Positions 60,001 through 63,000 of a stretch of DNA of 64,000 nt are shown in pieces. The position numbers were made by a program. Each line of letters opens with the position of its first letter. Position 1 is the stretch's first letter. Location of the stretch: assembly GCA_964498285.1 (NCBI GenBank), contig CAZCGN010000001.1, positions 1 to 64,000 of the forward strand. The letters run 5' to 3'. The stretch comes from an uncultured Methanosarcinales archaeon (GTDB lineage: Archaea; Nanobdellota; Nanobdellia; Woesearchaeales; GW2011-AR9).

Positions 60001-63000
60001 AATACAGGAACGATTCCGGAACTTCTAGAACAGTTTGAAAAAGTTATGGTCGAAATTGAGCATGCAGAATAGAGACTCTAGTTTCAAAGATAATAATGAT
60101 TTTAAAGGAAAAGAGATCTTTCTTTTTGTATGATAGTTGGTGTAGTTGGTTCGGTTTCTGTATGTGAGAATGTCATTTCTTATTTTGAGAAAAAGGGGTT
60201 CACTCATATCTCATTGTATGATGAACTGACTTCAGAAGCGCAGCGTAGAGGGCTTGTTCTTTCAGATCAAAATCTTATGGCACTCAAAGAAGAGCTTCAA
60301 AACACGCACGGAAAGGATGTTCTTGCCAAATGGGCACAAATCCATATGAAAGAAAATAAGCAATATGTTATTAGTTCTCTTTTTCATACTGCTGAAATTA
60401 CAACACTTGAAGATGCAAAAAAAATGATCCTGCTTGGTGTTACAAGCACTAAAAAGAAAAGTGGTCTTGTGGCAAAAGCATCAAAGATTCTTGTTCATAA
60501 CTCAAGTAAGGAGAAACTTCATGCAAAAATTGACAAATTGCTCATAGATCTAAATAAACAAATGCATGTTAGACCAAGCTGGGATGAGTACTTTATGGGG
60601 ATCGTTGATAGTGTCTCTACTCGTGCAACATGCTCAAGAGGCAGGACAGCTGTTGTGATTGTGAAAGATAAACGAATTTTAACTACAGGGTATGTGGGCT
60701 CACCCATGGGTATTGCGCATTGTGATGATGTTGGTCATCATATGAAACGAGTAGTGCATGAAGATGGAAGAGTCTCACAGCACTGTGTGCGCACAATTCA
60801 TGGTGAACAAAACGCAATTGCTCTTGCTGCGCGTAAAGGGATCCCACTTGAAGGTGGAACTCTGTACTGTAAGCTCGAACCTTGCTACACGTGTGCTAAA
60901 ATGCTTATCAATACTGGAATTACACGAGTTGTGTGTAGAAAACGATACCATGCAGCACAAGATTCACGGGTTCTATTCAAACAAGCCGGTGTTGATCTGG
61001 TTATTCTACAAGAAGAAGTCGAAAGTTATGCAAATCAATAAATAGTTACTTTTTAGTAGTAATCTTAAGAAATCTTTATAAAGAAAGTTCTCTTCAAAGG
61101 TCTAATGGGTTCAATGAGTCGCAATGATTTCTTAAGAAAATTAGGAAGCTCTCTTGTAGGGGCCAGTCTTATTTCTTTGACAGGAATTCCTGCAGTCGGG
61201 ATGGCTCAAGAAAGAGAAGAAACTTTTCCTCCAGAAATAATCAGAGTAATGTTCCACCACGATAGGGATCTATCTTCCTTAGTTGAAGAGGAAAAAGAGA
61301 AAGGAAATAACGGTCAACGCAAACTTATTGTAACTAAATCAAAACATCTTCTAGAAGCATACGTTGGAGAAGAGCTACTCAAAGGATATGAGGTATCCAT
61401 ATCAACAAGACCTGTTGGAGATAAGAGAAGAGAAGGCGATCTAAGAACTCCAGAAGGAACATTTTATGTTGCCCGTAAACATCCAACTAGCACATTCTAC
61501 AGAGCGCTTGTTTTAGGATACCCCTCAAGGTCGCACGCAGACAAAGGGTTAGCACATGGGTTAATTGATCAAACGACACATGATCGAATTCTAGCATCGA
61601 TTAGAAGATGTGAGGAACCAAATCGAGGAACTGGTCTTGGGAGTCTCATAGAAATCCACGGAGAAGATATGCCCGGATCAAACGATTGGACACATGGATG
61701 CGTTGCAGTTACAAACAATGATATGGACGAATTATACGAATTTGCTCAAGTTGGATGCAGCGATAGAACCCAAAGTGGCCTTGATCCTGCAAATTATGCG
61801 ACACTAGTAGAAATTAAAGCTTAGTTCAGATTCCTATTAACTGAACTTCAACACCATCTTCTGTTATTCCCCATCTACCCATCTCATCTTTATATGCCCA
61901 TGTTCGTACACCCGGTTTTCCACCTCTTTTCTCAAATAAATTGTCCGAGATCTGTTCTTGGTCTGTTACAAACTCTTCACCAAATGGTTCAGTGATTGGT
62001 GCAGTCCCTCTCCAACCTTGAACCATTGATAACTCGTCATATTTTCGATCAAGAGTTCCAATTGGCCTTGAATGAAGTGCATGTACTGAGTTACACGCAC
62101 TGAAGGTTATGGATTCTACATTGCCCTCCGGAAGATCATCCAAATATAATGGATCCATTGGAAGATGTTCTTCACCGCTTCTTGTAGGGGGATCATGCCA
62201 GAGTTTATCATCATCAGGATAATGATGTCCTGCAAGAACCAAATTTGAGCTGCCAGTATGGCTTGGTGCATCTCGACTTCGAAGAATAATACATCCTCCT
62301 TGTGAGGCGCAAGTACTTTCTAATCCCTGAGCAGTACTTGGTGTATCACCAGAGATAATAATTGTTGTCCCTGGTTTCCATCCATCTCCAATGTCTGACG
62401 CGCTCAAGCCAGCAGGAGGAATGACTTTTCCAAAACTTTGGGCAAACGCAACTTCACAATCAACCCCACGAGTACAACTCACAAAGCTTGTACGAGGTTT
62501 ATTAAAATAATCGCTTACGGCTTCATGCTGGAATCTGTTTGAAGACCAATGGTGAAGAATTGAAGGACAATCCCTTCCTTCACAAGAAGGATCGCGATAT
62601 GAAATATCAAACGTTCCTGTATTAATCCTACTAAGGTCTCCTTGAACTTTTGGAGCTGAAGATTTGCTATCAACAACAACACTACCTACTATATCACCAG
62701 TACCTGTTGCTGAGACAAACGAAAACTCTCCTTCTCGATGGTTTTGTACATCAATAGAGTCATAATAAGACTGAGTAGTAAATGTAACTTTCCCACTTTC
62801 ACCAAGATCTAGATTCTTTACGAGCAATCTTCCCATGTAGTCGCTTGAAGGATTGAAACCGGGTGTTTGGATAATACATCCGGTCATAGACGGGCACCTT
62901 AATTCTTCTACACCTTGCCTTTCAAACGTGTACACAAAAAGTAATTCGTCTCCCTGGTTTCCATCAAATTCTAAATTCCCACCTGAATGAAGGATTGTCT

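Follow-up and report, generated by a model that had tools for sequence, protein, structure and literature searches.

The YkuD gene and its surroundings

The window analyzed here, a stretch of 64,000 nucleotides of DNA taken as a whole, carries close to its end a gene for a signal-bearing YkuD-fold enzyme (P0001), which converges on the gene of a large partner protein. The following features were assigned to the YkuD gene.

61105..61824, plus strand: YkuD-fold cysteine enzyme, hydrolase type (P0001, 239 aa), from the ORF and profile searches
61105..61206, plus strand: predicted signal peptide or anchor, residues 1-34, from the hydrophobic N-terminus and Tat-like start
61321..61755, plus strand: PF03734 catalytic domain, residues 73-217, from the Pfam profile
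61423..61425, plus strand: Lys107, equivalent to DpaA Lys83 (mDAP carboxylate pocket), by alignment, in 21/21 subfamily members
61528..61632, plus strand: two-helix insert in loop L3, carrying Cys169, by alignment and model
61657..61659, plus strand: catalytic His185, preceded by Glu183, by alignment
61699..61701, plus strand: catalytic Cys199, with Ala201 at Cys+2 (Arg in transpeptidases), by alignment

P0001 matched the Pfam profile PF03734 with an E-value of 3.7e-17 (63.7 bits, above the gathering cut-off of 23.4), and both the His...(S/T)xGC motif and the beta-sandwich fold are present. This agrees with the initial annotation, which had described a signal-bearing YkuD-fold enzyme with an intact His/Cys pair (E 3.5e-18); H185 and C199 are both in place. 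Hydrophobicity at the N-terminus peaks at 1.85 (15-residue Kyte-Doolittle mean), and the protein has a Tat-like start, S-R-N-D-F-L, with R-N where the Tat motif has R-R. As a search of the 96% complete genome found no TatC, which occurs in 1 of the 114 genomes of the family, P0001 is probably exported via Sec or held by a signal anchor; Tat export is unsupported, with no twin arginine in the protein and no TatC found. A full twin-arginine-like start (N-R-R-Q-F-I) is seen in the protein at G000 C2:174016-174876, despite no TatC being found, and such starts likewise occur in P0003 and in the YkuD protein of genome G263.

The YkuD gene sits among archaeal genes on a 780-kb contig, part of a 1.35-Mb genome, and its GC3 falls at the 28th percentile among 1011 genes. 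The stretch is also contained in seawater runs of a further study, where one contig spans the 3' ends of the YkuD gene and its partner. Contamination or chimerism is ruled out by the 780-kb contig, the native GC3 and the independent contig over the YkuD/partner junction; the gene is genuine, native and intact. Toward the upstream deaminase gene, the junction is spanned by none of the listed pieces, which proves nothing. The nearest named archaeal records belong to Candidatus Woesearchaeota. The phage collection yielded a single unannotated record of 2.9 kb, and all 236 plasmid records were below 60% identity. Directly upstream of the YkuD gene (window 53388-61041) is a folate/thymidylate cluster of FolC-, ThyA-, DHFR-, SHMT-, kinase- and dCMP-deaminase-like genes, whose adjacency to the YkuD gene is not kept in relatives.

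Active site and relationships of the YkuD enzyme

We delimited an archaeal subfamily in 21 genomes of the family, spanning 16 genera: 19 by a protein-search E-value below 1e-28, and two more, G005 and G006, on the strength of the Cys pair and their place in the tree. A total of 182 YkuD sequences were collected, from which 8 without the motif, plus two repeat loci, were dropped before the residue table was made. Protein homologues occur in 29 of 114 family genomes, slightly more than the 25 counted initially, and a YkuD of any kind in 49 of 114; among 401 sampled genomes of the order, the YkuD profile matched in 12. The HG...WTxGC signature earlier ascribed to the homologues is valid for the subfamily (WTxGC in 21 of 21 members), but other YkuDs of the family have S-x-G-C-x-R.

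Residues that separate bond-forming from hydrolytic YkuD members were taken from parts of PMC8263019 and PMC10653827. Bond-forming L,D-transpeptidases (LdtA-E, YkuD) have an arginine at Cys+2, a position occupied by Ala201 in P0001 and by arginine in 0 of 21 subfamily members. P0001 also matches the L,D-carboxypeptidases in its long L1 loop with the mDAP-binding lysine and its helical L3 loop. Aligned with E. coli DpaA, it retains Lys83 (K107), His135, Cys143 and Ala145 (A201). Since the Lys83 equivalent and the alanine at Cys+2 are common to L,D-carboxypeptidases, they are not specific to DpaA. At the DpaA cleft residues Gln86, Arg108, Tyr109, Lys130 and Tyr131 (PMC10653827), only the aromatic at 109 is matched (Phe131), the others being replaced by E110, T130, S180 and L181, respectively. 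Tyrosine at position 181 occurs in 1 of 21 subfamily members; loss of Tyr131 leaves DpaA with 4% activity, according to the accessible part of PMC10653827. Position 183, which is Trp in Csd6 and Pgp2 (D-Ala pocket) and Met133 in DpaA, is Glu in P0001, and within the subfamily Glu (11), Gln (5), Leu (4) or Lys (1). The aromatic of the D-Ala pocket (Csd6 Trp158) is missing from this position in P0001, for which Trp195 would be a candidate substitute, and neither Trp nor Met is found here in any of the 21 members.

Loop L3 comprises 41 residues in P0001 versus 13 in DpaA, and the resulting 28-residue insert was modelled as two helices (pLDDT 85). It carries Cys169, which co-occurs with Cys218: both are present in 19 of the 21 subfamily members, both absent in one and displaced in one. 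This co-occurrence suggests a disulfide, which is predicted from the sequences to clamp the L3 insert.

The enzyme had been described as closest to the DpaA/LdtF amidase. DpaA is indeed the nearest by sequence, but P0001 is not a DpaA: it scored 45.8 bits (E 4e-12) against NF040599, for which the cut-off is 365, and Tyr131, Met133 and the C-terminal part are missing. Against this profile E. coli DpaA reached 428 bits, and short proteobacterial relatives about 50.6, above P0001. A looser definition of DpaA-like proteins, found in the available part of PMC8263019, asks that a PF03734 protein reach a BLAST E-value below 1e-8 with E. coli DpaA; P0001 gave 2.9e-8 (for an assumed database of 18.4 million residues), and four homologues from the family fell below 1e-8. 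In the trees, the archaeal subfamily forms one side of a branch at 70/94, or at 85/87 when P0023 is included, neither being starred. AU tests did not reject a grouping of DpaA with the subfamily (p 0.58 and 0.56), and the constraint improved the trees by 4.1 and 1.8 log units. The DpaA stem measures 2-4 changes per site and its placement differs among the four trees, which comprise no sequences of Csd6, Pgp2, Bd1075, ElsL or LdtPae3. P0001 is nearest to DpaA by sequence and nearest to Csd6/Pgp2 by fold, and the trees cannot place it.

Several other YkuD proteins were encountered. P0023, an unlabelled protein of 432 aa containing Cys-rich repeats, has a YkuD domain that falls together with the archaeal subfamily, making it a possible transfer partner. 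A second, family-wide type (L023:412-2049, L025, L026, L027, L030, L032, L033:526-2031) is 500-550 aa long, with an arginine after the catalytic cysteine and a PG_binding_1-like domain (E 3.4e-6 in L033), a transpeptidase-type architecture in an archaeon. A third archaeal group with a 26-aa loop (L004, L007, L008, L009, L011, L064) is nested among bacterial proteins in the trees, suggesting a separate acquisition. Genome G027 has four YkuD genes. An Arg-type YkuD gene directly adjoins a GH3 gene in G087 (L010:1480-3377), and GH3 and YkuD matches lie less than 500 bases apart in G078 (C5:16367-18175). A divergent C-terminal YkuD domain is found in proteins of 691-847 aa near subfamily genes (L103:3422-5965, L105:8672-10747).

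The convergent partner gene and other surface and wall-related genes

The gene that faces the YkuD gene extends beyond the window, and the gene upstream of it lies further along the contig.

Contig 61826-64078 (in the window 61826..64000), minus strand: partner P0250, 750 aa, with a signal peptide, a conserved N-terminal region of ~450 aa and a C-terminal caspase fold
61868..62401, minus strand: caspase-fold (clan CD) peptidase domain of the partner, ~residues 560-737, by fold match
62225..62227, minus strand: His618 of the partner, predicted catalytic, invariant in 23/23 aligned homologues
62093..62095, minus strand: Cys662 of the partner, predicted nucleophile, invariant in 23/23 aligned homologues
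Contig 64075-65418: prepilin-like gene, 447 aa, just upstream of the partner and co-oriented with it

P0250 has no Pfam or NCBIfam match, a PDB sequence search gave nothing usable, and its N-terminal region of ~450 aa matches no known family. By fold, the C-terminal domain matches CHAT, C11, MALT1 and C80, with a caspase-fold His-Cys dyad placed after strands in the invariant motifs G617-H618 and S-x-C662. The Pfam profile for Peptidase C80 (PF11713) matched none of the 23 members; the atlas value of 0.90 to a cluster with PF11713 at 13% is no more than a lead.

In 16 of the 21 subfamily genomes the YkuD gene lies tail-to-tail with a partner gene encoding a signal-bearing protein of 700-900 aa, a setting that the initial annotation had overlooked. 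Fifteen of these pairs are full-length, with gaps of -11 to 476 bases (one with a small ORF in between), and one is cut by a contig end. In the remaining five genomes the partner was found ~10 kb away (one) or on another contig near a different YkuD gene (one), the locus is at a contig edge (one), or no partner was found (two). Of 114 family genomes, 23 have the partner; a YkuD occurs in 22 of these, versus 49 of 114 overall (kin are not independent in these counts). The partner profile matched in 6 of 401 sampled genomes of the order. G263, from another family, has both genes, likewise tail-to-tail. Upstream of the partner, all 15 full pairs have a co-oriented gene of ~420-510 aa whose product starts with K/R-G-Q and a hydrophobic run. 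From archaeal class III signals we take this gene to be prepilin-like, a call that no profile model confirms.

In genome G085, a PG_binding_1 protein with an Arg-type YkuD domain occupies the partner slot. Pairwise distances of YkuD and partner showed no correlation (Mantel p 0.41; the distances may be saturated), which counts against co-evolution, and a complex prediction for the YkuD domain and the partner protease domain scored 0.00, which is neutral either way. Further cassettes of a K/R-G-Q gene and a large signal-bearing gene, encoding different large proteins, lie on the other side of the YkuD gene in L091, L092, L094, L099, L106 and L108; such repeats may constitute a modular surface system. 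Giant predicted surface proteins of 2300-5700 aa are encoded at G000 C3:16289-33391, C3:102877-112050, C1:616716-624038 and C1:102816-109748.

Two unlinked genes had been named as companions of the YkuD enzyme, and both were recovered. The SleB-like hydrolase (C2:196699-197463) gave Hydrolase_2 at E 4.7e-5 (24.4 bits, below the cut-off of 27), and the NagZ/GH3 gene (C1:604145-605230) gave GH3 at E 5.4e-35, with 84 bits against NagZ NF003740, below its cut-off of 207. The latter carries the nucleophile Asp and KHxPG-x6-DxH, which we take to be the NagZ motif. A count of 88 of 113 family genomes for NagZ rose slightly to 96 of 113 for GH3; GH3 is a core gene of the family (97 of 114 genomes), present in 19 of 21 subfamily carriers and 78 of 93 others. 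Divergent from the SleB-like gene is a gene for a 416-aa protein with an SLT-like C-terminus (G000 C2:195346-196596, minus strand; L001:5347-6597), recognized by an atlas value of 0.94, a weak NF052397 match and R-E-S and S-A-T-G-L-G-Q motifs; it has no Pfam match. A second SLT match at C1:115249 (E 4e-4, below the cut-off) was dismissed as chance, being a helical-looking ORF of 147 aa without a signal. The 96% complete genome yielded no PBP, amidase_2, NlpC/P60, M23 or PG_binding_1, and the sole Mur-ligase match is a gene beside thymidylate and folate genes that we read as FolC-like.

Proposed function of the cassette and comparison with known systems

We consider it probable that P0001 is an exported mDAP-stem hydrolase whose gene belongs to a conserved cassette of three, alongside genes for a caspase-fold protease, also predicted to be exported, and a prepilin-like protein, likely serving to open or digest bacterial envelopes. 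Display at the surface would be through the prepilin-like protein, and bacteria would be the target. In such a mechanism, Lys107 would grip the free mDAP carboxylate and Cys199/His185 would form an acyl-enzyme at the mDAP L-centre, to be resolved by water; the caspase-fold protease may clear envelope proteins, while the unlinked SLT-like, SleB-like and NagZ-like enzymes may cut glycan. D-Ala4 is a plausible leaving group, and an amide-linked protein or a 3-3 cross-link, kept alive because Glu183 replaces the Trp pocket, is equally plausible; a Braun-type lipoprotein in particular would be a long shot. Because walls with mDAP are also known from Bacilli, Clostridia and mycobacteria, the host need not be Gram-negative. 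Sequence cannot tell a live host from debris.

The strongest competitor, a minority reading that overlaps with the hydrolase cassette and shares part of its probability, is scavenging only: the hydrolase and NagZ would trim muropeptides of dead cells to obtain amino acids and sugars, and would play no part on live ones. The NagZ-like GH3 in 97 of 114 family genomes fits such a diet, as does the YkuD-fold recycling L,D-carboxypeptidase ElsL (accessible part of PMC9239154), to which a weak NF040925 match of P0001 relates. A muramoyltetrapeptide carboxypeptidase has been reported in Pacearchaeota, with dead-cell peptidoglycan proposed as a source of amino acids (part of PMC11537232). A YkuD gene so tightly linked to those of a stalked protease and a prepilin-like protein would better fit a contact device than soluble recycling, however; GH3 is linked to the YkuD gene in none of the subfamily loci examined, and the Trp pocket of a D-Ala carboxypeptidase is absent.

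It is unlikely that the enzyme is not directed at walls and has been recruited to process or release surface proteins that the archaeon itself encodes in the cassette. Such a role would account for the tight linkage to two archaeal surface genes, the subfamily-specific insert and Cys pair and the want of a wall-binding domain, but the mDAP-binding lysine is retained in 21 of 21 members, relatives sharing this loop carry fused wall-binding domains, and the protein in the partner slot of G085 is itself a wall-binding YkuD.

Rather improbable is a true transpeptidase that cross-links the host wall (cf. Bdellovibrio Bd0886/Bd1176) or ligates an archaeal surface protein to it. The arginine at Cys+2 is absent throughout the subfamily, and Lys107 with the long L1 and L3 loops typifies a single-entrance hydrolase pocket. 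On the other side, fold and catalytic pair are the same, LDT function is not fixed by lineage, the neighbouring protease could generate an acceptor amine, and Arg-type YkuDs with PG_binding_1 exist in the same family.

The initial annotation saw a DpaA-type amidase acting on a living Gram-negative host, where it would detach Braun-type lipoprotein from the wall; we now hold this to be quite improbable. DpaA is the top match by sequence and Foldseek; Lys83, Ala145 and the aromatic at Tyr109 (Phe in 5/7 DpaA orthologues) are matched, the Trp pocket for D-Ala is missing as in DpaA, and the AU tests allow the grouping. Against this stand the profile score far below its cut-off and exceeded by short proteobacterial relatives, the change of Tyr131 to Leu and the absence of Met133 from all 21 members, and the long, shifting DpaA stem; no host is known, and Lpp was found in fewer genomes (694) than DpaA-like proteins (2,310), as given in part of PMC8263019. 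With DpaA nearest by sequence, Csd6/Pgp2 nearest by fold and the trees unable to place P0001, lipoprotein detachment from a Gram-negative host would be one candidate option.

Least likely of all is a docking device for bacterial cells, in which a prepilin-like anchor would display a stalked caspase-fold protein that cleaves either itself or surface proteins of the host, after which the YkuD enzyme would break wall-membrane tethers or even bond the freed archaeal protein end to host mDAP; if true, an archaeon would be covalently attached to a bacterial wall, and these genes would be a marker set for Woesearchaeota hosted by bacteria.

Wall-degrading GH23 proteins of Woesearchaeota and a possible bacterial host have been published (parts of PMC8204110 and PMC9723730), and archaeal peptidoglycan hydrolases were surveyed in PMC12352652, also available in part. 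Neither 'YkuD' nor 'transpeptidase' appears in the main text of PMC12352652 (as stated earlier for 'transpeptidase'), PMC8204110, PMC9723730 or bioRxiv 10.64898/2026.05.13.725050, in two supplements of PMC8204110 or in the searched supplements of PMC12352652 (all but file 13). The accessible part of PMC12729407 makes no mention of archaea. In a literature search whose coverage excludes most subscription journals, none of the matches listed (20 of 22) had archaeal YkuD as its topic by title or start of abstract, and for Woesearchaeota with transpeptidase the word appeared in a reference only. Woesearchaeota YkuD enzymes were thus not found in print, whereas wall degradation by Woesearchaeota is already published. 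What is new is a subfamily of hydrolase-type YkuDs, enriched in Woesearchaeota, whose genes belong to a conserved export cassette that also encodes a new caspase-fold protease. The cassette strengthens the existing idea of small archaea acting on bacterial walls and makes it testable; the specific DpaA story is not established.

In the literature covered, no Woesearchaeota host is established, and the case for a bacterial host has so far come mainly from GH23 proteins, which cut glycan. An independent line of evidence for bacterial hosts is added by a peptide-stem enzyme that 16 genera retain in a fixed cassette together with a new caspase-fold protease. Both domains are small, foldable and assayable in E. 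coli, and knowing which leaving group is preferred would narrow down the type of host and assign a first function to the wide bacterial YkuD subgroup with W-T-x-G-C and Glu before His, for which no member of tested function was found.

The large GH23 murein transglycosylases of Woesearchaeota and Pacearchaeota and the archaeal modular peptidoglycan hydrolases share the proposed biology, but are a different enzyme class, and the portions of text and supplements searched hold no YkuD or caspase-fold partner. Like the clan CD peptidases (CHAT, C11 clostripain and the C80 MARTX/Tcd autoprocessing domains), the partner has a caspase fold with invariant G-H and S-x-C; it differs from them in its ~11% identity, an extra Cys-rich subdomain, the lack of a Pfam or NCBIfam match, and in being archaeal, signal-bearing and set on a 450-aa N-terminal region.

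E. coli DpaA (LdtF/YafK; an mDAP-protein amidase; PDB 8IKR, the top PDB match by sequence; NF040599) has in common with P0001 the YkuD fold, the Lys83/His135/Cys143/Ala145 set, an aromatic at Tyr109 and the absence of a Trp pocket. Unlike DpaA, P0001 lacks Arg108, Lys130, Tyr131, Met133 and the C-terminal extension, has an L3 loop 28 aa longer with a Cys pair, is linked to a protease and comes from an archaeon in which no genes for building peptidoglycan were found. The L,D-carboxypeptidases Csd6 (H. pylori), Pgp2 (C. jejuni), Bd1075 (B. bacteriovorus) and ElsL (A. baumannii) act on their own wall; compared with these, P0001 is a single-domain protein of 239 aa with Glu183 for the D-Ala-pocket Trp. 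Its true nearest relatives (40-46% identity over the domain) are bacterial W-T-x-G-C proteins labelled 'murein L,D-transpeptidase YafK', such as Rhodothermota SH3 fusions, which share the 41-aa loop and the Glu before His, lack the Cys169/Cys218 pair and often carry SH3, LysM or PG_binding_1 domains. For an L,D-transpeptidase-fold enzyme exported onto the wall of another cell, precedent is provided by bacterial YkuD-fold proteins used on other cells, namely the Salmonella T6SS effector Tlde1a (part of PMC9638812) and Bdellovibrio Bd0886/Bd1176 (part of PMC10482364).
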